A stretch of DNA of 64,000 bases from Klebsormidium nitens (Eukaryota > Plantae > Klebsormidiophyceae): NCBI GenBank assembly GCA_000708835.1, contig DF237003.1:1-64000 (forward strand), in the 5' to 3' direction. A program made the translations under genes and the position numbers. Each line of letters starts with the position of its first letter. The first letter of the stretch is position 1. The notes beneath the pieces are model-generated. The model was not told the DNA's origin, did no database searches, and was given only the letters and a program-made list of their open reading frames with translations. This document shows, piece after piece, positions 2,650 to 59,200 of the stretch.

Positions 2650-4080
2650 TGGGGCTTAGGGGGGCGAGGCGATCTTACGCCTGAGCAGAAGCAAGCTCTT
2701 GAGGACTTGATGGACGAATTTCGTGACGTGCAAGCAGCCGATATGTCCGAAATGTCCACAATCATCGGGAAGAGGTTCAAGATTCCGGTTACGGATGATA
2801 CACCGATTTTCAAACACCAGTACCGGCTCGCTTACGCCGAGAAAGACATTCTGAAGGACCAGGTCGAAGAGCGCCTGAAGTGCGGCTTTTTTCGCCGGTT
2901 CAGTGTCCCCATGGGCCTCGCCTACAACCATGCCGCCGAAGAAGGATGAGCACGGCAATTGGACGTTGAAGCGACCATGCGGTGACTATCGAGGACTGAA
3001 CAAGGTCAGCATCCCTGACCACTATCAGCTGCCGACTCCAGAGGAGATATTCGATGAGCTGGCGGGTTCGACGTGGTTTACCACGCTTGACCTGCGCTGG
3101 GGTTACCACCAGGTAGCCATTGCAGAAGAGGACATCTGCAAAACAGCGTTCTGGGGCCACGACGGTCTCTACGAGTGGGTTGTTATGCCCTTCGGGAGCT
3201 GAAAAACGCCCCTGCCTTCTTTCGGAGGCTGATGGACACCACACTAAGTGCGCAGCGCGAGTTCTGCCGCTGTTACATCGACGACGTGATCATTCACAGC
3301 AAGTCGTTCGACGAGCACCTGATACATCTGCGCGCCGTTTTTGAGCGGCTGCGCGCGAAGCGGATTAAGTGCCACCCTAAGAAGATGCGGCTGGCCGTTC
3401 GCACAGTGCCCTACCTGGGCCACTTTATCGTTCCTGGCGGGACAGCGCCGCAGGACGTGAAGGTGGAAGCCATCGTACGGATGGTTCCGCCTCGGGACAT
3501 CTCGGAGCTGCGAGCCTTCTTAGGCACCTGCGGTTACTACCGGAGATACGTCCAGAACTATGCGCGCATCGCCGCACCCCTGAACCGCCTGCTTCAGAAC
3601 GTCGTTGTCTGGAACTGGGTTACTGACGAGCAGAAAGCTTTCGAGCTGCTCAAGCTCAAGCTGACTGAAGCGCCGGTCTTACGGCGCCCCGACTTCACCA
3701 GACCCTCTGAGCTGCACACCGACTGGAGTGCCACTGGGCTGGGCGCTGTTCTCGCACAGCATGACGAGGAAGGGAAAGAGTACGTGGTCGCTTACGCGTC
3801 ACGCAGCAACAATCGAACGGAGCGAAACTACTCCAGCTACCATGGAGAGTGCTTAGCTGCCGTCTGGGGAGTTTGCTACTTTGCTACTTCCGCGTGTACC
3901 TGTACGAGAGGCAGTTCACGCTGATCACAGACCACGAGCCGTTGCAGTGGCTGATGACAAACACGAAGCTGACGGGCATGCACGCCCGCTGGGCAAACAT
4001 CCTGCAGGAGTACGATCTGACGATTGTGCACCGCAGTGGAGTCAAGAATCTGGATGCAGATGGGCTCTCGAGGAACCCGC
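2650..4080 (+). pseudogene. Reverse transcriptase - RNase H of Pol (frameshifts near 2900, 3198, 3881)
   Basis: SPWASP, RPCGDYRGLN, LDLRWGYHQ, KTAF, MPFG/LKNAP, YIDD, YLGH, LHTDWSATGLGAVLAQ, TDHEPL, ADGLSR read across ORFs 2380, 2903, 3175, 3849. Confidence 0.95.
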
Positions 4081-4479
4081 TCCCAGAGGATGATGACTGG
4101 ACAGATGCCCGAATGGACCACGTCGGTCTGGACTTACCTGCCGTCTCGGCATGCCTTGCCATCCTGGCCGGCACCCTGAGCGAGCCCGAGGACCCAGAGC
4201 TGACGCGCCTACTAAGCCCTGACGACATTCAGGCACCAGAGAGAAGCCTGGCAGACACGCCAGCAGAAAGCTCTGCCGAAGCGCAGGCAGAACGCCCTGC
4301 ACAGCCGCAGGCAGAAAGCCCTGCAGACGCGCAGGCACTTGCAATCGTGGCGCCCCTGCGTGAGGCCGCCGATGACGATGTTGACTTGCCGGTCCGATTT
4401 GACCGCGAGATTTGGGAGGACGCCCCCGTAATGGCGTACCTGGAGGCTGGCGTGTACGCAAACGGCGTGACACCGAAGC

Positions 4480-5600
4480 AGAAGGATCGCATCTGGCACC
4501 GAGCCCAGAGCTATCAGTTGAAGGACGGCGTCCTGAGAAAACGCCTCGTTGACAGCGCGACAAAGATTGTCCCCCGTCCAGAGCTGCGCGCGAACCTGAT
4601 TCGCCGCGTGCACCAGGATGTCGGCCACTACGGCGTTCTGAAGACGTACTCACTGCTGAGCCCCACTTACTGGTGGGTCCGGATGTACGGTCAGGTCCAG
4701 CACGAGGTAGCTGCCTGCACCGTCTGCGATCGGGTCAAGGCGACCTTCGACGTCAAGGACCCCGAGCTCAAGCCCCTGCCTATCATGGGCATGTTCTACC
4801 GATGGGGCGTAGACCTGTGCAAGATGCCACAGAATTCCGACGACGGCAACCGCTACGTCGTCGTGATGGTCGAGCACTTTACGAAATGGATTGAGCTCCG
4901 TGCGATTCCGGCCAAGGAGGCCAAGCACGTCGCAGCCGCCTTTCGGGATGTTCTGATCCGATTTGGAGCGCCCGCGGAGGTCGTGACCGACCAGGGCCGC
5001 GAGTTTGAGGGCGAGTTCGATGAGCTCATGTTTGCCCTGTACATTGACCACATCTGGTCCTCGCGGAATCACCCGCAGACCGATGGTCTGGCCGAGCGCA
5101 TAGTACAAGTCGTCAAGAAGGCGATGCGCAAGTACGGCCTGCTGTTCAACAAGCGGCACTGGGACCGGTTCCTCCAATGGATTGCCTTGGGGTACCGAAT
5201 GAGCCGACAGGCGTCCCTGTGGGGGTATTCACCCTACTACATGCTCTTCGGCCGACACCCAATCGTCGGGAGCAAGGTCCGCGACGTTCTCCAGGAGCCA
5301 GTGGATCTGGACGATCCCATCCTGTGCGCGAAGTTCTTACACGACCGCGCTGAGCTGTTCAAAGAGATCGTACCCATGGCGTTCGACAATCTCGCCATCG
5401 CTCAGCACCGGGACATCCTGCGCTACGCGCACACCCGGTCAGGAGACTTCAAGCCGAAACTGCGTCGGTACGAAGTGGGCGATCTGGTTTACCTGCGCCG
5501 CCAGCCTGCTGACTCCCTGGACCCCAAAGTCGGCCGCCTGATTCCGGCGCGTCAAGGAACTGAAGGGAACGGGCCGAGTCCTTTTGGAAGGCCGTGACCA
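4480..5600 (+). pseudogene. DDE integrase of Pol
   Basis: HQDVGHYG...CTVC zinc finger; GVDL, VTDQGREF, GLAER catalytic motifs; frameshift near 5545. Confidence 0.93.
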
Positions 5601-5697
5601 GAAGACGATTACTGAGCACGTCGAGAACTGCGCTCCGTGCCACGACCCGAACATCGACCTCTGGCAGAACCCTGTGTTCACCGAAGCAGACCGGGAC

Positions 5698-5862
5698 CAG
5701 GCATGCCAAGTCTGCCATAAGACAACAGGCGCACCGAAGATGCTGCTGTGCGACAACTGCGACGAGGGCTGGCACATGCACTGCCTGACCCCGCCAGTGA
5801 AGCGCATGCCAAAGGGCAATTGGTTCTGCCCGAGGTGCCCTGTCAACGACGACGATGACTAG
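5698..5862 (+). pseudogene. PHD finger at the integrase C-terminus (end of Pol)
   Basis: CQVC-x8-LLCDNC-x4-HMHC-x13-WFCPRC = C4HC3 PHD pattern, 5704-5838; stop TAG 5860-5862. Confidence 0.92.
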
Positions 5863-5937
5863 ACGACTACTACGACTACCTTATTCGGGCTACTTCCGGG
5901 ACTTCAGGAGGCTACGTCGGGACGACTTCGGCAAGCT

Positions 5938-5946
5938 GGGGGGGAG
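5938..5946 (+). other. Polypurine tract
   Basis: GGGGGGGAG lying 75 bp after the Pol stop and directly before the repeated LTR-like sequence. Confidence 0.7.
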
Positions 5947-6651
5947 TACCATGGATTACTACGTTTTCTGCATGACTACGACTACATCAGCATGCTAAAA
6001 TTGATTGCGCGGATTAGCCGCGGTAGTTTTTCATTTCGAGCACATTAGATTGCGCATGGTCATAGGACCCGAGACGTTACTGACACGACATGTAGCATCA
6101 CGACAGCTGTCACGCTGTATGACATCGGCATAGCAGAGCATCGGTTGCATAGCGTATTGCATGATTTGCTTGTTATTGCATAGCTTATGAGACGTTGCAT
6201 AGCTTACGAGCTAGATTGCAGAGACGCGGTTACCTTAGCAGGTTATCGCAGACTCTAGTTCACGTTCGCAGTCGTTATGACTTGAGCCACAGCTCAGTCT
6301 GCTAGTATTCGATTCGATAGGCTAGTCTTACGGTTAGCCTCAGACCACGCCATACATTAGGCAGAGACATCTCGCTAGGAGACCATTCTTCTCGCGAGTA
6401 GACTCTCGTGAGGAGCTCTTGGCGCTTTGACATGGTGGCCATGCTTGCATCCTTTTAGTCTACTCGGCATTCACCTCTCTCCTTGCACTTAGTACCATGG
6501 ATTACTACGTTTTCTGCATGACTACGACTACATCAGCATGCTAGGATTGATTGCGCGGATTAGCCGCGGTAGTTTTTCATTTCGAGCACATTAGATTGCG
6601 CATGGTCATAGGACCCGAGACGTTATTGACACGACATGTAGCATCACGACA
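5945..6651 (+). repeat. 3' LTR region with a 161-bp direct repeat (5945-6105 / 6491-6651)
   Basis: Two copies 546 bp apart with 3 mismatches; non-coding; follows the PPT; ends in ...CACGACA. Confidence 0.85.
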
Positions 6652-9259: not shown

Positions 9260-12200
9260 ATGGCGCGCTCCTGGCTGCTGGACCTGCTCTGCACTCCATA
9301 CATCTACATGCTCGCCTTCCTGACCCTGGTGAGAGCTGTGCATTCTCTTTCTGCTGCTGAAATGAGTAAGAACGCTAATATGGCTGTAGCAGTCGATGAT
9401 TGTTCGTGAGAACTTTCGATGCCACCTGATCATTGGCCAGTGATTGATCATTAAGCTTCGAAGGTGAGGTTTGAGGGCAAGGTCACTTGTGGTGCTCTTG
9501 GCAAGGATGGAAAAAGTGGTTCCAAAAAGAGGAACAAGCTGCCATCAGCTTGGCCTAGATAATGTTCCTTTGCAAGCCCACTAGCTGAAAGCATTTTAAA
9601 AGTAGAGCACTAAGAGGGCCCTTAGGGTCAGAAATGGATGCGGACCATTGAACGCCTTCTCTGAAGGAAAGGAAACAACTTTCACTCACTGCTAGTTGGT
9701 CTTGGAACACGATGTCAGTACACTTGATCGTTTGTTCCCTTTCAGGACAGCACTGAGGAAGGAGTGAGCTTTGATGGATACTATAAGTGACAGGACAAAG
9801 CATACATAGAAGGCAGCTTGATGGGGCTAAGCTGATTGCTGTTTTCAGCCGTCTAAATGTCTGAAACGGCGCATACTGTGGTTGTTTATCAGCCAGTCTG
9901 AATGACACTTCTCTCTGCCTTGTCCGGTCTCTCCGTAATTCAAAGTCGAAGTGAACCTCCTCTCCTGTGTCCTATGAAGCCGCTCGCAATGTCAAAGATG
10001 ACCGGCCGACATACACCCAGCCCAGGGATCCCTCCATGAAAGACAGAAAGCAACCCGGACCATCTTAGTAACCAGTTATCTTTATTGACTGTAGTCGTGA
10101 GTCAATCACAGCGCTTTCTTCTCAAGGTAAGGGTATCAATCTGCCAATGAGCCAACCAGCTTCCGGTGGTAGAAGCTACGCTCCGGCTGACACGGAAAAA
10201 TACAAACGTCCTCTGGGAAACAACAGCCAAATATGAGTCACTTCTGACTCTTGTTTTTTCCTTTCTGGCCCCACAGTTACTTGGCTTCGAAGCCAGCAGT
10301 CTTTTGGCGGGCCAGGGGTCCTACTTCTCCGGAGCCACGAGCTTCTTTGGGCGCGCGCCCAAGTCCGATGAGTGCCCCGCATACTTCTGCAACATCTTTG
10401 ATGATCTGGAGCCCTGGTTCGCAAAGGGGGGCATCACAATGGAGGACATCAACGCGGACCCGGAGGCTGTCACCATGAAGATTCAGGCAAGGCAGAAGTC
10501 TTGGTTTCCTAACCGTGTATAATCTATGAGGAATCTTTTCAAGCAACAAAAGAATGAAGACAGGCTAGGAGCGTGTGTCGTAAGTTCAAAAGTATGAAGA
10601 TGTGGACAGAGCGGGCACTCGGTTGTCTCTCTGAGCCAGCCTCGATGTGCGGCGATTGCCAGAGAAAATTGCGGTCAAACGACCTTGGCTGTAGGCGTGC
10701 TGTGGGGCTTACAGCCAGATAGTTTAGACTCGAGCCGACCACCAAAGCATACTCTTTCTGCTCCCGGCCCTGGTTCACTCAATTCTTTTCTGCGCCCACC
10801 TCATGCCTAGCCCGGCAGCTCACTCGCGCTGTGGGCCCCCCTGCAGATCCTGAACGGCACTCTGTACTGGCGATGGACGGGAGGCTGCAGCTTCACGCGC
10901 ACGTCGTTTACTCTGTGGGCCATAATGATGCTGCTCGAGCGCTATCCGGGCCAGGTGCGCTTGCAGACGACTTTCTCGGGCTACGGAAGCTGCCTAGGCG
11001 TCGTGTTCACGTGCTCTAGAGCAGGGTCAAGGAGACGGATTTCTTCGAGACCACGTTGTTGGAAGCAATGACTTGACGAGGGTTCGGAATTCGGAGGGCC
11101 CTTTTCGATCAGAGCTTGGCCGTACGATGCCAAGGCCAGGGTTTATCAAAGCTCGCCATGGCGCCCGTTTCAACAGCGTGCTCGACCTTGGTCTTGTATC
11201 TTCTAGGACTCTTTGACCCGGTCCTCCAGTAGCCAAACAACAGGGGTATTGCCGCTTCTATTGAACGCCAGACTGTCGGTTGTCAGAATAGGGCGTTTCT
11301 TTTCGAGTATGCGGTGGTCAAAGGATCGCCGGCCGGAGATGTAACTTTGAGGGACCCGTTAGAGGCCAAACGCCAGAGAGTTCGTCCGTTTGGAAGGCCG
11401 AAACGAGGATAAAATAAGGTGGAGTGGGCTTTTTCTTCTACGAGAGGCTGTCCTAGCAGTTAACAGTTGTCGAAGCATTGAAGGTTTTGGAAAGCCAAAT
11501 GTCTTGTTGCTTCAGTCTACCGCCTCTCTTCTTCACCTGCCCACTTTGGAAGAGGAGCCGTTCTCTCGATACCTCGTCTGCATCAGTCCATCATGATTAC
11601 GTTTCCAGGGCGTCCCTTCACAGCATCTCGCAGTCTGTTCCAAAGATCCCCTGGACTTTGCAGTGTCCGTCGGAAAAAGTACAAATGGAACACACGCCTC
11701 TCTGTACTGGTCGGTCGCTTATATTACGAAGTATTTCAAAAGCAAACGGGTGCTCGGGCTGCGTTCATGTCGGTCGCGATTGCTTTGTAACACAGCCCGC
11801 TCGAGGATCATGCTTCCAAATATAATGGTAAACAGTAGAACATTACAAACGTTCGCGTATGCACTTTGAAAATTCTAATCTGCTCGCATCCCGCAGGTTC
11901 CTGACGTGCTGTTCAACGTGTGCTGCCACGACGACCCGGCGGTGCCCGCAGAAAAGTGGGCCAACAACGCGAGCGCCATCCCGCCCATCTTTTCCATGTG
12001 CAGCAGCGAGGACCACTTGGACCTCGTCTGGCCTGACTGGTCTTTCTGGGGCTGGTGAGCGTGCGCGTTTGTTCAGTCCCTTTGATCCGCGTATTCGCGA
12101 AGTTCCTCCGCGCAGAAAGAGTCTTGTGAAATTATGGAATCTAGGGGGGAGGAATCAACAGCGAAGCTTCGTGGGGGTGTTATTATATTAGGTAGGGGTG

Positions 12201-14734
12201 CGTGCCTTGACGGAGATATTGCTGCGCAACTTTGGGTCCCTTTGCTTTGTGTTGTTTGGAGCACCAGGCTCTCCGAATCCAGTCCATTGAGAGTCTGCTC
12301 GAAGTTCCGTTGCTTGCCTCCATAGACACAATCGAGAGGGAGCTACCGCGCTCTCAAAAACAATGACAGAGGCAATGTAAGAACAGTTGATTGAGGAAGG
12401 GCCTGGGCTCCAATGCCTCTGAGTTCCTGTCAAGGAGACTTTGAGGTTCGAAAGCTTTCAACGACCGTAGACAGCCGAGTCCGCCGTTCCACTTCTGACT
12501 TGAACGTGCCCTTGGTAAGTCAGATGAGACGCTCACGTCGTGGTGTTGGCTTGCATACCTACCGGCCCCGCTTCGAGGAGTCCTTGTCTGGGGCAAGGTG
12601 GTAATATGCTCTTCATTCTGAAACTGGTCAAAGCGCACGACCGAGCCAGAGTGTGCTGACGTATTCAATTTCCTCATTTGCAGGCCGGAGCTGCGCATTC
12701 CTGAGTGGCGCACCAAGAGCGCGCAGATCCTGGGCGGGAAAGGGCGCCGCACGCCGTTGGGAAAGCGGGAGCCCCGGGCGTTTTGGAAGGGTAACGCGTT
12801 CACGGGGAGGGGGCCCAACCAGGGCCTGCGGCAGCAGCTCGTGGGGTGCTCGGAACCCCCCGGATACGAGAACGGCATCGAGGCGGTGAACATTTTTTGG
12901 GATGACGAGATCAACAAGACGGAGACGAGGCTGGAGGAGCAGTGCGACCACAGGTGGGGGGCCCATCGATCTCGAGAACGACAATGATGAGCGAAGCTTC
13001 TCGTTTATGCAACCGCCTTGGGATGGGTAGAGTTCGGTTTGGGGTTCGTTTGGCTGGGGTGCGGACCCTGTTTGGATACTTGAAGTCGGAGCTTAGTTTC
13101 ATCTCGGTTTCTTCATTGAATTGTTGACGATCATCGGGGGGCCCGGCATGGGCCTCTGCACGTACTTCCTTAGACCGACAAGTGATGGATCCGTGGGGCG
13201 TGGGTGACGTAAGTATCTGAGGAGGGCATGTGCTGGTAGCTTGTCCGTGTTGGAAGCGCATCACTAGTTGGGAGGATCGTTGTTCGAAGCTTCTGTGCGA
13301 GGCCTTGTTCCATCAAACGGGATGCATGTGAGGATGGCCTAATGATTTCTGAGAGTCCGCTCACTCGATGGAGGAAAGAGCAGGAGTGGGATGCATCCAC
13401 TGAGGTGCAGTCACGAGACTGCTTTTATCAATCACCCAGGACGGAATCAATATTGAGGTTGGGGACGAACGCCTGACAACTGAAAAGCCACACCTTGTGA
13501 GCAGTTACCTTGAATCGTAGTGGCCATCTCTTTCTGCTGCTATCGAATCCGCAGCACCACCCATCTCTACTAAACGCTGTGGCCCACGAGATTAGCAACT
13601 CGAACTGATCCGCATCCTTCTTCGACTCAGTGCTGATCCGCATGAGCGGGCCGCAACACCCACCATGTCAAAAAACTTTGATTTGAAACGCCAAATCCGA
13701 TCACTAACGCAAAATTCGATCACTCCAAATAATCGCTCGAGCCATCTGTTCCAGGTATCGCATCTACGCGGAGGGCAACACGTGGTCGTGCAGTCTTAAA
13801 TACGCCCTGGCGTGCGCCTCGGCGGCGCTGGTCATCGACCCCGTGTACTGGGACTTTTACAGCCGGGGCTTGGAGCCGTTCCGGGACTTCATCCCAATTG
13901 AGAGGGGGGACAACATGTGCGACAGACTGGAGGTAGGCGCTCTTCGCTTCTGCTAAGTCAAGAGAGACACGAGACAGTCAGCGTACCTGACTTTTGCTGC
14001 CCTTTCCTGAGACGAGAAGTGGGTTCCAGTAAACAATGTCGTGGTGCTTCTGTGTTGTCTGAAGTGTCCCTCGTAGTTCGTCTCGTCCGCACAGGTCATG
14101 TTCTGAAGCCGCTCTTACTCACGTTTTGGCCGCATAACCAGAAGGACTATTTGATGCCTCGTGCCTCTCAATCGAGTCGGTTTGAAATCATGCGGACTGG
14201 TTCCATTCTTGTTTCTTCAAGGTAAGAAAGCCTGCTTTCACTTTCACATCTCGATAGTGCTCAAACCTCAGCTGATTTGATGGGTTTTCGAAGCTCTTCT
14301 TAACTAGAATGTTTTTGCGCTGGCGATCTCCTTCCGGATTCAACCTCTGCTTGGGACGATGGACGTCAGAGATTTGTACGACTTGGTCTGAACTGCAGCG
14401 TTTTTGCTCTTGATCAACTTTCAACGTGCGAGAGAGTCAGTATGCTTTGCAGATGGCGGTTTGGTGGGGTGACAAGCATCTGCAACAAGCAACATCTATT
14501 GGAGAAGCGGCTGCCCACTTCATAGAAAGTAGCTTGAGTATGGAGCGTGTCTATGATTACATGCTACACAGTTTAAGGGTATACTCAGCATTACAAACGT
14601 TTGCACCCGTGAAGGAACCAGCATTGAATCCTCTGCTTACAAAGGCGTTTTATGTCGAGAGGCCACCATTTGAAAAGGAGTTCATGGAGTGGGAGGAGAG
14701 GGCCAGCGAGTCACCCTGTAGGTTAAAGTGTTAA
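9260..14734 (+). CDS. Glycosyltransferase family 90 (CAP10/Rumi-like O-glucosyltransferase-type), 7 exons, about 424 aa
   Basis: Exons 9260-9328, 10277-10486, 10847-10954, 11897-12054, 12684-12953, 13755-13932, 14453-14734 sum to an open frame; CPAYF..I..DLEPW, VPDVLF, WPDWSFWGWPE, AFWKGN, YRIYAEGNTWSCSLKYALAC, YDYMLH motifs; hydrophobic N-terminus; first exon least certain. Confidence 0.9.
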
Positions 14735-44489: not shown

Positions 44490-46230
44490 TCTAAGTGCGC
44501 GCGTTCCTCGTCCGACAGCACACCGAGGCCTCTCGCCCAGAGCTTGCGCATATTGGACATCGCATCGAATCGCCCGACCGAGCAGCCCCCGCAAACCACT
44601 TCTCCGCAAATTCCACATCCTGGCCCACACCCGTGCCCGCTCCGTAGCAGACGCCCAGGCTGTTCTGCGCCCGCGCTGATCCCCCTTTGGCGGCCTTTCG
44701 ATACCACTCAGTTGCCTTCTTTTCGTCCTTGCTCACACCCGCACCTCGCTCGTGGCAGACGCCGAGATTGAACTGCGCGCCCGCGTGCCCCTGCTCTGCG
44801 GCTCGCCGGAACCACTCCGCTCCGCGAGCCGCATCCTACGCCGCACATCTTTGCCGCGAACGTAACACAACCCCATGTCATACTGTGCGACCGCCTCCCC
44901 CTTCTCAGCGGCCTTCCAAAACCACACCATCGCCATCGCCTCGCGTCCTTTTCCACGACCCCGTTCTTGTACCATTTGCACACCTTCTTGCACGGGGCTT
45001 GCACGCAGATGCGTGTTCCAGTCGGGCGGAATTTCTGTACCATTTCAACGCCAGTTCGTTGTCCTGTCGAACGCCCACGCCTCGCTCGTAACACGCGCCG
45101 ATCTCGAATAGGGCGTCCTTGTCCCCCTGCTCGGCAGCCTTACAGAAACAGTCCACACCACGCGCAACATCCCGCATCACGCGATCGCCTCGAAGATAGC
45201 AGCGACCCAACTGCACTTGAGCGCCCTCATCCCCCTGCGCCGTGCAGCCTTCCGGTACCATTGGACCGCCTTCCTCGCGTTCTCCGCGACGACGCCCTTC
45301 CGCCTTTGAGCACAGCACCTCCCGCAGGCATTCTGCGCGCAGCTGCATGCTCCTGCTCGGCTGCTTTTCGAATCCACTCCGCTCCAGCTTCACCGCGTCC
45401 CTGTCCACACCGATGCCACCGGTGTAACACAACCGCGAAAAGTAATGCGCGCTCGCTTCCCCTTGTTCGGCAGCCTTTCGGAACCACTCTACTGCCTTCC
45501 CCTCGTCCACGACCACACCACTGCCCCCTCATCGTAGCAGGCTCCCATTCCGGACTGCGCGCCTGCGTGCCCCTGCTCGGCAACCCTTCGAATCAATCTC
45601 GCACCCCGCACAGCGTCCCTCCCCACACCGATGGGGCACCGATGCCTGCGAGATAGTTTTTCCCACGGAGAACTGCGCGTCCGCATCCCCCTGCTCAGCC
45701 TGCGGCCTTCCGGTACCACTCGAGCGCACTTCTCTCGTCCTTCTTCACGCCGATTCTGCTTTCGTAACATTTCCCCAGCTTGGCTTGGGCCCCCGCATGC
45801 CCTTGCGCTGCAGCCACGCTGCAGCCTTTCGGCACCATTCGACGGCCTTCCCCGCGTCTTTGCCCACACTGGTGCCTTCTTCGTAACACGCCCCCACACT
45901 GGCATGCGCGCGCTGCGGCCTTCCGGTACCATTCGATGGCCTTCCTGTGGTTCTTGCCAGCACCCGAAGCGCGCTGTCGCAGCAGGCCCAGGTTGCACTG
46001 TGCTTCCGTGTCTCCCTGCTCAGCTCGCTCTCGAAACTCCTCCCGGCACTGAACGGCAGCCTTAGTGTACCACACGCGCCAGGGCCTTGTCCACGCTCCT
46101 GCCTTGGGTGTATCACACGATCGACAGCTTATATTGCGAATCCCCCTGCTCGGCGACCTTCTGCAATTACTCCATCGAGCCCGGAAAGCTGGAATCGCTG
46201 ACCCCCTGCGCGTCGTGACTCGCATTACTC
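44490..46230 (-). pseudogene. Intronless Sel1-like repeat protein pseudogene (roughly 15 repeats)
   Basis: Recurrent KAxEWYRKAAEQGxAxAQxxLGxCYxxGxGVxxD units scattered over all three minus frames; many frameshifts. Confidence 0.88.
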
Positions 46231-56200: not shown

Positions 56201-59200
56201 GAGCAAAGCCTCGTAGCATGCATGATTGTGGAAACCGACGGGCTGCACAGTACCTGCAATGACTTCTAGCATGCAGGACTTTGGATAGCCTGTCAAAAAG
56301 ATGACAGGCTAAACAGACGCCAAAATAACTAGACAGGGGGCGTCTCTCACTGGCAGCCAGGCTGACAAAGGGCGGGACGGTAAAGTTGTTGCTGGCGCCC
56401 ACTGCCAGCAGGCCCGCGTCCCGGTTGTCGCACAGCCAGCCGCTCCCGCTGACGCCAGCAGGGCACGCGCAGACGGGAACTCCCCCAGAAAGAGTACACG
56501 TGGCAATGGGGTCGCACGGGTTGTTCACGCCGCAGTTGGCGAAGGCGCAGCCTGCCGCAACGAGAAGAATGGTGAAGTGAGGGATGTCGAGGGAGAGGAA
56601 ATTAGAGGAATGTTTGGCGAGTTTGCCTTTCCGTTGCAACGGAATGCCGCTGCTTTTAAAGGAGAACTGACGTGGGCGTTTGTAGGGATTCTTGATAGAC
56701 GGGGGAAAAACCTGTGCAGCAAGCTGAAGAAGCAGGATCCAGTCTCGACACGTTTGGAGACGTTAGCGGACCCCTAAACTTTTGCGATGTTTCCTGCCGC
56801 TTCACAACCAAACCCGCTGTATTGCAACAGGCGAAGAAACTGCTTCTCAGTTCGCAAGTCGACGTCCGGGCAACACTCACTTGAGTTGACGACCCCGCCA
56901 GCCCCCGGCACGACTATCCCCACCGGTTGGCTCGGGCAAAAGTTGGTCGTCCCGTCCGAGGGGCTGTTCGCCACCCTGATTCCGGCCCCCCCCAGCACAG
57001 AGTCTGCGCTGTTGCGCGTAAAGACGTTGGGGCTAGCAACAGTTGCATAGCTGTCGTCTAAAGACATTGCACCCCCTAACGGCGCATAGTTCTGGATGAA
57101 GTTGTTCCCGCTGAGGAGCGTGAAGTAGCTGCTCTCGTCGAACACGGCCCCGCCGCTCTCCTGCAAACGGTGGGCTAAGGTAAGGAGTCCTTCTTAGCAG
57201 GGGGGAGTAAGCAGAAAACTTCGCCTCAGCTCTATGGTGCACAGAAGCGACGGCAAAGCCGCTCTCCTGCAAACTGCGGGCTGAGATAAGGACTCCTTAG
57301 CAGGGGGGGTGAGTAAGCAGAAAACTTCGCCTCAGCTCTATGGTACACAGAAGCGACGGCAACGCCGTTCTCCTGCAAAGTGCGAGCTAAGACAAGGACT
57401 CCATATTAGCAGGGGGGATTCGAGCAGGAAGCTTTGCTTCAACTCCTTGGCGCACAGAAGTCGGGCCGCCGCCAAGTGGTGAGTGTATGATTCGCTACTC
57501 GCGACAGAAATGCTGCCGCGTTCCCGTCTGCGAGCGGCTCGAACGACCGTCTCATCGGGACAGACGAGATACAAGCAACACCCTTGCAAGCAAGCTCAGT
57601 ACTTGTCCGTTCCATACGTTTGTGGCTGTGCACAACTGCAAGTGGAAGTGGTTCGACGAAAGCCGTCTAGAGCGGCGATGGCCCCGCCCCACCAGCATCT
57701 TTCAAAGCTCCAGCTTACAAAGAGGACGTAAGAAGACCTGCCCAATCTCAAAGAGGAAACCTGACGCACCAGCTTTGCAGTTGCCACATGGCGGCCTTGA
57801 CTCGAAGTTCAGCTGCCATCGAAACAAACGCTTTAAAGCGCAGAGAACCCCTTGCTCGACGTCGTCTTTCGTATCATCATGCGATTACATCCAATGCAAC
57901 AAGACACGGAAAAAAAAGCGGGCGGGGTGTCCTCACGTAGGCCGTATTGTTGGCAAAGGTGTTGCCAGCGATGGTGATATTCCGCGTACCCGAGTCCACG
58001 TAGACCGCCCTGCAAGCAGAACCGCACGTGCTTCTTAAGTCTGTCTCTAGCTCGAAGATTGGGGGGAGGCCAAGATAGACGAGCAGTCTAATACTTCTAG
58101 GGCTTTTTCTCATATGTCAGCAGTTGCGGGTATTTTGTTGGGGCTGTTAGGTGATGGTTTCTTTTTGCATCTTTGGTTGGATCTTGTCGACGTTTAGGGC
58201 CAGAAAACGTTCGTATCTTGTCTGTAGCACGAGAGACGGTCCGTCCTTTGCTCTCAGAAAAGGCCCGTTCGGACACTGGTCAAAACTGGCTAGGCACTAT
58301 GCGGTCGGACCGGCAATGCTGATACGCAAAATGCCCTGAAATCTTTGCTTCGAATGCCTAGAAGCGGCCGTAGCTACAGAAAACAATCTGGATGACCGAA
58401 CGCACGCCTTAAAGATAGGGTTAGCTTATGCTTTCGACATCCTGAATCAAGAGTACTGTCTTGCCAGACCACAGGGGACATAACAGTCAGCAAACAATGC
58501 GGCAACCAGATTGCAACACGTTACTTGACCGCCCACCTGATCAAAATAAGATGCTCAGATTTGACGGGCCATCATCTGTCGTCGCAAGGCCTAATTACTT
58601 AATACCTGTGTCTCGAAACGCCGAGACCTTTCGGCGGATGACCTCGATGCTGAAATCACAGTGATGAAGTGGGGCCAAAGTTCGTAATGAGGCTGCCCCA
58701 AACGGGTACAGAAACTCTTCTTGAATGGGTCCAATCACGCACCCGCCTTTCGACGTCGCATTGTTGTACAGAAAGAGGGACCCGCGGATGGAGTTCGTGG
58801 CAACCGTGGGGCCGAAGGAGTCGTACAGAGAATACACGTTGATGGCCCCGCCTTCCTGCGGCAGCGTACACAAACTTCTGGGTTAGGTTGACTGAGAGCT
58901 TGTTAACTAAAGGTTCTGCTTGGGACTACGAACGAAATCCAGAACCTAACCCGCTCTAGAACCCAGTTTAACTACCCAGATCAAAACGCGTTTTGCCGGG
59001 CAGTTTGGTTAGTCAACATGGTCCTTAGTCAACGTGAGATTGGGGGAATTAGCGCAAACAACCCAGCGTTCTGGGCAGTCTCGGAAAATAGAGGCGAGGG
59101 AGCGAAAGCACGAAGAGGTGGCGGGCAAAGGTTGCAGGATAGCAAGAAGACGCATGGAACGTGCACCACGTACATCAAGAGGCTGCGCGTTTGCTTATAT

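Follow-up and report, generated by a model that had tools for sequence, protein, structure and literature searches.

A PHD finger follows the integrase in a DNMT3-carrying Gypsy retrotransposon of Klebsormidium nitens and its relatives

The window analysed here, 64,000 nucleotides of Klebsormidium nitens DNA (contig DF237003.1, positions 1 to 64,000), begins inside a Gypsy retrotransposon on the plus strand, whose domains follow one another in the order Gag, protease (PR), DNA methyltransferase (DNMT), stop codon, reverse transcriptase (RT), RNase H (RH), integrase (IN), SH3-like module, and PHD finger. The 5' end of the element lies outside the window, and positions 1-610 hold, in broken frames, the Gag tail and a linker that match residues 490-607 of the sister protein P0121 at 89-96% identity (tblastn); in P0121 itself a Gag with two CCHC knuckles is followed by the protease and the DNMT. 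An aspartic protease was recognised at 611-889 by the family HMM and by a Pfam Asp_protease_2 match (E 0.006) that falls short of the cut-off, and a DNMT3-like C5 cytosine methyltransferase, the last domain of ORF1, at 1326-2327 (Pfam DNA_methylase, 1.6e-11; profile matches to DNMT3C/A/B, 5e-15). After the stop codon come the reverse transcriptase (2903-3429; Pfam RVT_1 in two ORFs, family HMM) and RNase H (3616-4019; Pfam RT_RNaseH and RT_RNaseH_2, family HMM), both frame-broken, and the zinc-binding and DDE core domains of the integrase (4569-5408; Pfam Integrase_H2C2, 4e-14, and rve, 2e-10). A purine-rich tract read off the sequence at 5933-5946 is likely the polypurine tract, and the 3' terminal repeat region (5945-6651) contains a 161-nt block at 5945-6105 and again at 6491-6651, a direct repeat with 98% identity. 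The two copies of this block are 546 nt apart, and sister contigs suggest that they are tandem parts of the LTR; DIRS-like repeats are given for the Gypsy-DNMT3 family in the Fig. 4 legend of PMC5890265. Downstream of the element, at 10151-14731, lie exons that belong to a glycosyltransferase family 90 gene of the host. Further along, the intervals 44582-45970 and 57144-57418 hold degenerate repeats spaced by about 108 nt and a 106-nt tandem repeat in three copies.

The element is a decayed copy of the K. nitens KnitGypsy-Dnmt3 (de Mendoza 2018, PMC5890265). The assignment is based on species, DNMT3 best matches, and the Gypsy order PR-RT-RH-IN, set beside the published description of an intronless DNMT3-like domain in a Gypsy element of K. 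nitens. The streptophyte Gypsy-DNMT3 elements as presented in the available parts of that paper share with it the species, the Gypsy domains, the intronless DNMT3-like enzyme, and the unusual split terminal repeats. That the element carries a DNMT3-like enzyme, as had been claimed from the sequence, was borne out by a profile of 19 related ORF1 proteins, whose best PDB matches are DNMT3C/A/B. The window integrase is identical (100%) to the K. nitens gene model KFL_000540030. The window copy is dead, with at least nine breaks, located near 225, 330, 890, 1488 (a stop), 2464, 2899, 3196, 3872, and 5545. The stop at 1488-1490, within the DNMT, is specific to this copy, as another base is found at position 1490 in all four sequencing runs consulted.

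The stop codon that separates the DNMT from the reverse transcriptase is of a different kind. Sister proteins P0121 (99% identical), P0122, P0123, and P0125-P0128 end one residue before the TGA at 2328, and the full-length ones among them start with Gag knuckles and a protease. The DNMT is consequently the last domain of a Gag-PR-DNMT protein ahead of a conserved in-frame stop, and not, as originally proposed, at the opposite end of one polyprotein from the PHD finger. PMC5890265, in the part available, places the DNMT in the Pol ORF, whereas the sister proteins here end directly after it. No variants at 2328-2335 are listed in the contigs of the four runs, and diverged sisters continue with TGA-CGG and TGA-CAA-TTA at the same stop. 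An in-frame stop followed by CAA, CAG, or CGG was present in 15 of the 36 sequences with the DNMT before RT (window included), representing five distinct contexts from four families: TAG-CAG-TTA, TAG-CAA-TCA, TGA-CGG, TGA-CAA-TTC, and TAG-CAA-CCC, the last two of which fit CAR-YY only. Type I and type II readthrough motifs have CARYYA or CGG after the stop (PMC3542737, available part), and the conserved in-frame stop with such a context is what the sequence of a programmed readthrough site would look like; the predicted site in the window is the TGA-CAA-TTC at 2328-2336, recognised from the ends of sister ORF1 proteins and the contexts of relatives. For comparison, a readthrough-type context was found in one of 27 distinct terminal stops after the PHD finger versus five of five DNMT/RT contexts. 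DNMT/RT stop sites were also located at L001:210, L004:5083, L007:4661, and L041:4912.

In L004, the second ORF opens directly after TAG-CAG-TTA, and its first methionine comes after 116 codons, at the start of the RT. The families of the window and of L041 have an ATG three codons past the stop, which makes reinitiation an alternative to readthrough in these two cases. A shared readthrough-type stop is absent from a family of 20 loci, and in L012, L014, L025, and L032 the frame is open from the DNMT through the RT. Since the RNA hairpin predicted 3' of the stop is not better than shuffled sequences (z -1.16), no structural readthrough signal is claimed. From the position of the DNMT at the end of Gag-PR-DNMT, before a stop in a readthrough context, we infer that the enzyme is probably produced at the level of Gag, and RT-RH-IN-PHD at trace levels. 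Our search, which reached a minority of the subscription literature, found no paper on this leaky stop. When the DNMT domain of K. nitens was assayed in yeast, no activity was seen, a result called inconclusive by its authors.

At the other end of the element, the ORF at 5542-5862 on the plus strand contains a full C4HC3 finger at 5704-5838, which matches Pfam PHD (E 1.2e-11; 44.9 bits versus a cut-off of 24) and solved PHD fingers in the PDB, has all eight zinc ligands, and belongs to PF00628. An acidic stretch, EADRD, precedes the finger, and the ORF stops at 5860-5862. The integrase ORF (3765-5597, with H2C2 and rve) is in frame +3 and the finger in frame +1. In alignments with in-frame relatives (P0002, P0003, P0004, P0006, and P0017), the match runs in frame +3 as far as about 5541 and resumes in frame +1 at about 5548, and a one-base indel at 5545 is present in the contigs of two of the four runs (X6 and X14), with none tabulated for X1 and X9. 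The frame break near 5545 is absent from sister copies. It splits the module at 5463-5649, which was found by the family HMM in two frames and which we take to be an SH3-like or GPY/F integrase C-terminal module; in the structure predicted for the relative P0022, a beta-strand domain stands in this place, and a Foldseek search with that model retrieved integrases only. These data uphold the original prediction that a C4HC3 PHD finger ends the integrase once a frameshift near 5545 is corrected. The interval assigned to it, 5584-5862, was right for the finger at 5704-5838, while 5584-5649 is the tail of the SH3-like module. The finger likewise occupies the place of the chromodomain of chromoviruses, as was supposed: it follows the integrase, and no Chromo match was obtained in the window ORFs or in the 36 relatives scanned, so that the chromodomain after the integrase that marks a chromovirus was not found in them.

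We then considered how constant the finger is among relatives of the integrase. With an integrase-only query, 233 proteins were found, and 114 of the 120 that were listed contain a PHD finger. The six others are the gene model of the window copy, three proteins that end early, P0029 with a divergent cysteine pattern, and P0082, a true absence. Among the best 80 of 427 metagenome matches, the finger is present in all 68 loci whose sequence continues for 450 nt or more beyond the integrase. The HMM used for these counts was built from the same proteins, and Pfam's own annotation agrees with it. In six unsaturated pairs out of ten, dN/dS of the finger was 0.06-0.16, and that of the integrase 0.03-0.18. 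The PHD finger is a fixed part of this integrase clade, under purifying selection. Relatives extend to Marchantia, Chromochloris, and Scenedesmus, and a scan of viral contigs gave two distant loci. The Marchantia polymorpha gene models P0149 and P0151-P0153 are Gag-DNMT proteins of the clade, with 35-39% identity to the DNMT in the window. A chance juxtaposition, in which a PHD exon of the host or an assembly chimera came to lie beside a broken integrase, would explain why the finger is out of frame in the window copy and why the public gene model KFL_000540030 omits it. More than 100 relatives have integrase and finger in one frame, and purifying selection acts on the finger; together with the frame alignment and the run contigs at 5545, the in-frame relatives rule out such a juxtaposition, whose probability we consider negligible.

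The likely ligand of the finger was approached through residue statistics on 91 of 121 fingers, those conforming to a strict pattern, with a separate position check on 101 fingers. The residue two before the zinc-binding histidine, the site of the cage tryptophan in ING2 and BPTF, is glycine in 85 of the 91 pattern-matched fingers and tryptophan in one; in the position check none of the 101 fingers has an aromatic residue there, and the window finger has glycine. The aspartate that follows Cys3 is retained in 86 of 91, and the strand of hydrophobic residues ahead of Cys3 is almost invariant. An acid at -2 or -3 relative to Cys1, as in the EADRD of the window finger, is present in 45 of 101. 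In the available part of PMC3241642, K4me3 readers are described as having an invariant cage tryptophan, and readers of unmodified H3K4, for which BHC80, AIRE, CHD4, and DPF3 are given, as having no cage and acids before Cys1. The window finger lacks the cage tryptophan of the former and shows both features of the latter, the acids being shared by the 45 of 101 relatives. Its best solved relatives, among the best 60 of 62 and of 183 PDB matches, are CHD4, KDM5 PHD1, KMT2C/D, ATXR5, BHC80, DPF, BAZ2, KAT6, UHRF1, and AIRE. The predicted ligand is likely the unmodified N-terminal tail of H3, and as far as sequence can tell, the finger looks like the reader of unmethylated H3K4 that had been proposed.

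A finger that reads H3K4me3 and steers insertion to active chromatin would accord with a methionine that 85 of 91 fingers have at the third residue ahead of Cys3, a position that forms the cage floor in some K4me3 readers. This is very improbable given the cage position devoid of aromatic residues in 101 of 101 fingers and the lack of any ING, BPTF, or TAF3 chain among the best 60 PDB matches shown. The acidic, K4-binding patch before Cys1 is variable, so that the finger may be only loosely specific for K4me0 or may have a ligand other than a histone. The finger might then bind a host factor, element proteins, or nucleic acid, or aid nuclear retention or integrase folding, with no H3K4 role, and non-histone ligands are known for some PHD fingers (PMC3241642, available part). 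We regard this as rather unlikely, since the aspartate after Cys3 and the hydrophobic strand are so well kept and the closest solved fingers are mostly H3 binders.

As for the relation between finger and enzyme, 72 loci with a PHD finger comprise 34 with a DNMT, 35 too short to judge, and three without, so the two domains occur together in 34 of 37 informative loci. Of the three, L059 is intact, with RT-RH-IN-PHD and no DNMT in one open frame of 2093 residues; L020 and L035 seem to be broken. The 108 proteins that have RT, RH, and IN divide into nine with the DNMT ahead of RT, 60 with it between RH and IN, and 39 with none in the frame, of which 34 start just before RT and are uninformative. 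In a tree of 77 rows, a subset of 123 picked to thin near-duplicates, the elements with the order RH-DNMT-IN group into a single clade (SH-aLRT 100). Two DNMT-less lineages, P0070/P0093/P0094 and P0235, arise at separate places inside this DNMT-bearing clade, and P0185/P0166 form a third; weak deep nodes and unnamed outgroups make the order of events tentative. All DNMT-less lineages in the tree keep the finger, with the same reader residues. P0214 and P0250 had been candidates for DNMT loss and were dropped, as weak DNMT traces remain. Conversely, no intact DNMT element clearly without a PHD finger was found; P0200, P0237, P0256, and P0279 end early. The independence of finger and methyltransferase that was to count against the prediction was thus seen in one direction, PHD without DNMT in full-length relatives from at least three lineages, and not in the other. 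The PHD finger does not need the DNMT, and the DNMT may depend on the PHD finger.

The boldest part of the original prediction was that the element had rebuilt a DNMT3-like reader and writer, in which the finger senses unmethylated H3K4, controls or recruits the DNMT, and couples target choice to methylation. It would agree with the presence of both domains throughout the clade, with the correlation of DNMT and RT-RH-IN distances (Spearman 0.71, 68 elements), with a catalytic cysteine kept in 28/28 and 58/59 DNMT domains, and with the 60 of 108 proteins in which the DNMT lies in the same frame as the PHD region. The ADD domain of DNMT3 and ATRX consists of a GATA-like finger and an all-Cys PHD-like finger. 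The window finger is a single, plain PHD with histidine at ligand 5; no ADD family match was obtained for it at E values up to 1, nor does ADD appear among the 25 families shown for 30 members. In the window type, a stop codon and about 1100 residues separate DNMT and finger, and many algal transposons have PHD fingers with no reported DNMT. Taken with the at least three DNMT-less lineages, these points leave the rebuilt pair weak, and we judge it quite unlikely. Relatives keep the finger after loss of the DNMT, which suggests that the two domains likely work separately.

Seen against earlier work, the finding is mostly a known family joined to a known accessory domain. There is no mention of a PHD finger in the text and three supplementary files of PMC5890265; its Fig. 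4c may draw the domain. PHD fingers in retrotransposons have been called widespread (PMC6673714), and the PHD is a common accessory domain of Chlamydomonas elements (PMC8557442, PMC9940879). The closest of these, Chlamydomonas Gypsy-7a_cRei and REM1, also have a PHD accessory domain in a green-algal Gypsy polyprotein, proposed to limit harmful insertions, but in the part of PMC9940879 available no DNMT is reported for them. In Gypsy-7a_cRei, the finger comes before the integrase according to the figure legend, as in P0293, whereas in the window element it comes after. The Gypsy polyprotein P0293 carries a deoxynucleoside kinase together with a PHD finger between RNase H and integrase. Chromoviruses (REXdb, PMC6317226) share a chromatin reader at the integrase C-terminus, there a chromodomain and here a PHD finger, which the available REXdb text does not mention. 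EpiLTRs and DAM-LTRs (bioRxiv 10.64898/2026.05.21.726589) likewise combine a reader and methyltransferases in one LTR element, but with a chromodomain, a DNMT4-related enzyme, and a DIRS-derived DAM instead of a PHD finger and a DNMT3-like enzyme; that preprint regards Gypsy-DNMT3 as a separate kind of element, and no PHD domain is found in its main text as available. Animal DNMT3A/B (bioRxiv 10.64898/2026.01.13.698514, available part) have a DNMT3-type catalytic domain and a PHD-like fold predicted to prefer unmethylated H3K4, but their ADD adjoins and autoinhibits the enzyme, whereas the window element has a plain C4HC3 PHD on the integrase, beyond a stop codon.

Separate action of the two domains can be put into a model. 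Translation would usually terminate after the DNMT, with occasional readthrough, the protease would free the domains, and the DNMT would act on the element's own cDNA in the particle. The finger would anchor the integration complex on chromatin, a role that chromodomains play in chromoviruses, and by binding the unmodified H3 tail it would bias insertion away from H3K4me3-marked promoters. This tethering to H3K4-unmethylated chromatin, with the DNMT acting separately, is in our estimation moderately probable. Intergenic-biased insertions are reported for a PHD-bearing Chlamydomonas Gypsy element in the available part of PMC9940879, whose authors say that the bias may be due to selection. If the finger steers integration, the clade would be an experiment of nature in which an LTR integrase has exchanged its chromatin reader, including matched lineages with or without a methyltransferase. 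De Mendoza 2018 left open the place and the dose at which a retrotransposon DNMT acts, and to this the leaky stop offers an answer that can be tested.

A second branch of the clade has the order RT-RH-DNMT-IN-PHD (L073:6780-10520; P0160, P0187, and P0103) and includes chlorophyte members. Named members with RH-DNMT-IN come from Chromochloris and Scenedesmus, and Haematococcus proteins carry a C-terminal tail; in the available part of PMC12344493, only streptophytes and dinoflagellates are named for retrotransposon DNMT3, and our search, short of most subscription papers, found no paper on a chlorophyte Gypsy-DNMT3. An extra C-terminal domain follows the finger in 32 of 60 RH-DNMT-IN proteins, with a fold that Pfam missed; the window element has no such tail. 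The model of this domain (pLDDT 83) matches the N6-adenine methyltransferases KsgA, M.TaqI, and METTL5 (Z of about 10, rmsd 3.3-3.9, about 150 residues), while a Foldseek search with it returned nothing at E values up to 0.001, and the Atlas ties the domain to phage methyltransferase-like clusters. The tail as modelled therefore matches an N6-adenine-methyltransferase-like fold. An RH-DNMT-IN branch with chlorophyte members and such a tail was not found in the literature searched.

For the green-lineage clade as a whole, one may imagine a self-silencing insertion programme, in which a leaky stop loads the particle with as much DNMT3-like enzyme as Gag, the PHD-integrase delivers the enzyme along with the methylated cDNA to chromatin unmethylated at H3K4, and one branch, having moved the DNMT beside the integrase and added a phage-like adenine methyltransferase, would place both 5mC and 6mA at the landing site; we consider this scheme unlikely as it stands. 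In the second branch, a small beta domain often lies between finger and tail, and we tentatively read it as Tudor-like from its sequence and strands. Second-branch DNMTs have Glu-Cys instead of Pro-Cys in motif IV in 33 of 59 cases, with the other catalytic residues kept. In some second-branch elements (P0062, P0069, P0103, and P0115), the linker close to the DNMT and the integrase contains a G-patch domain.
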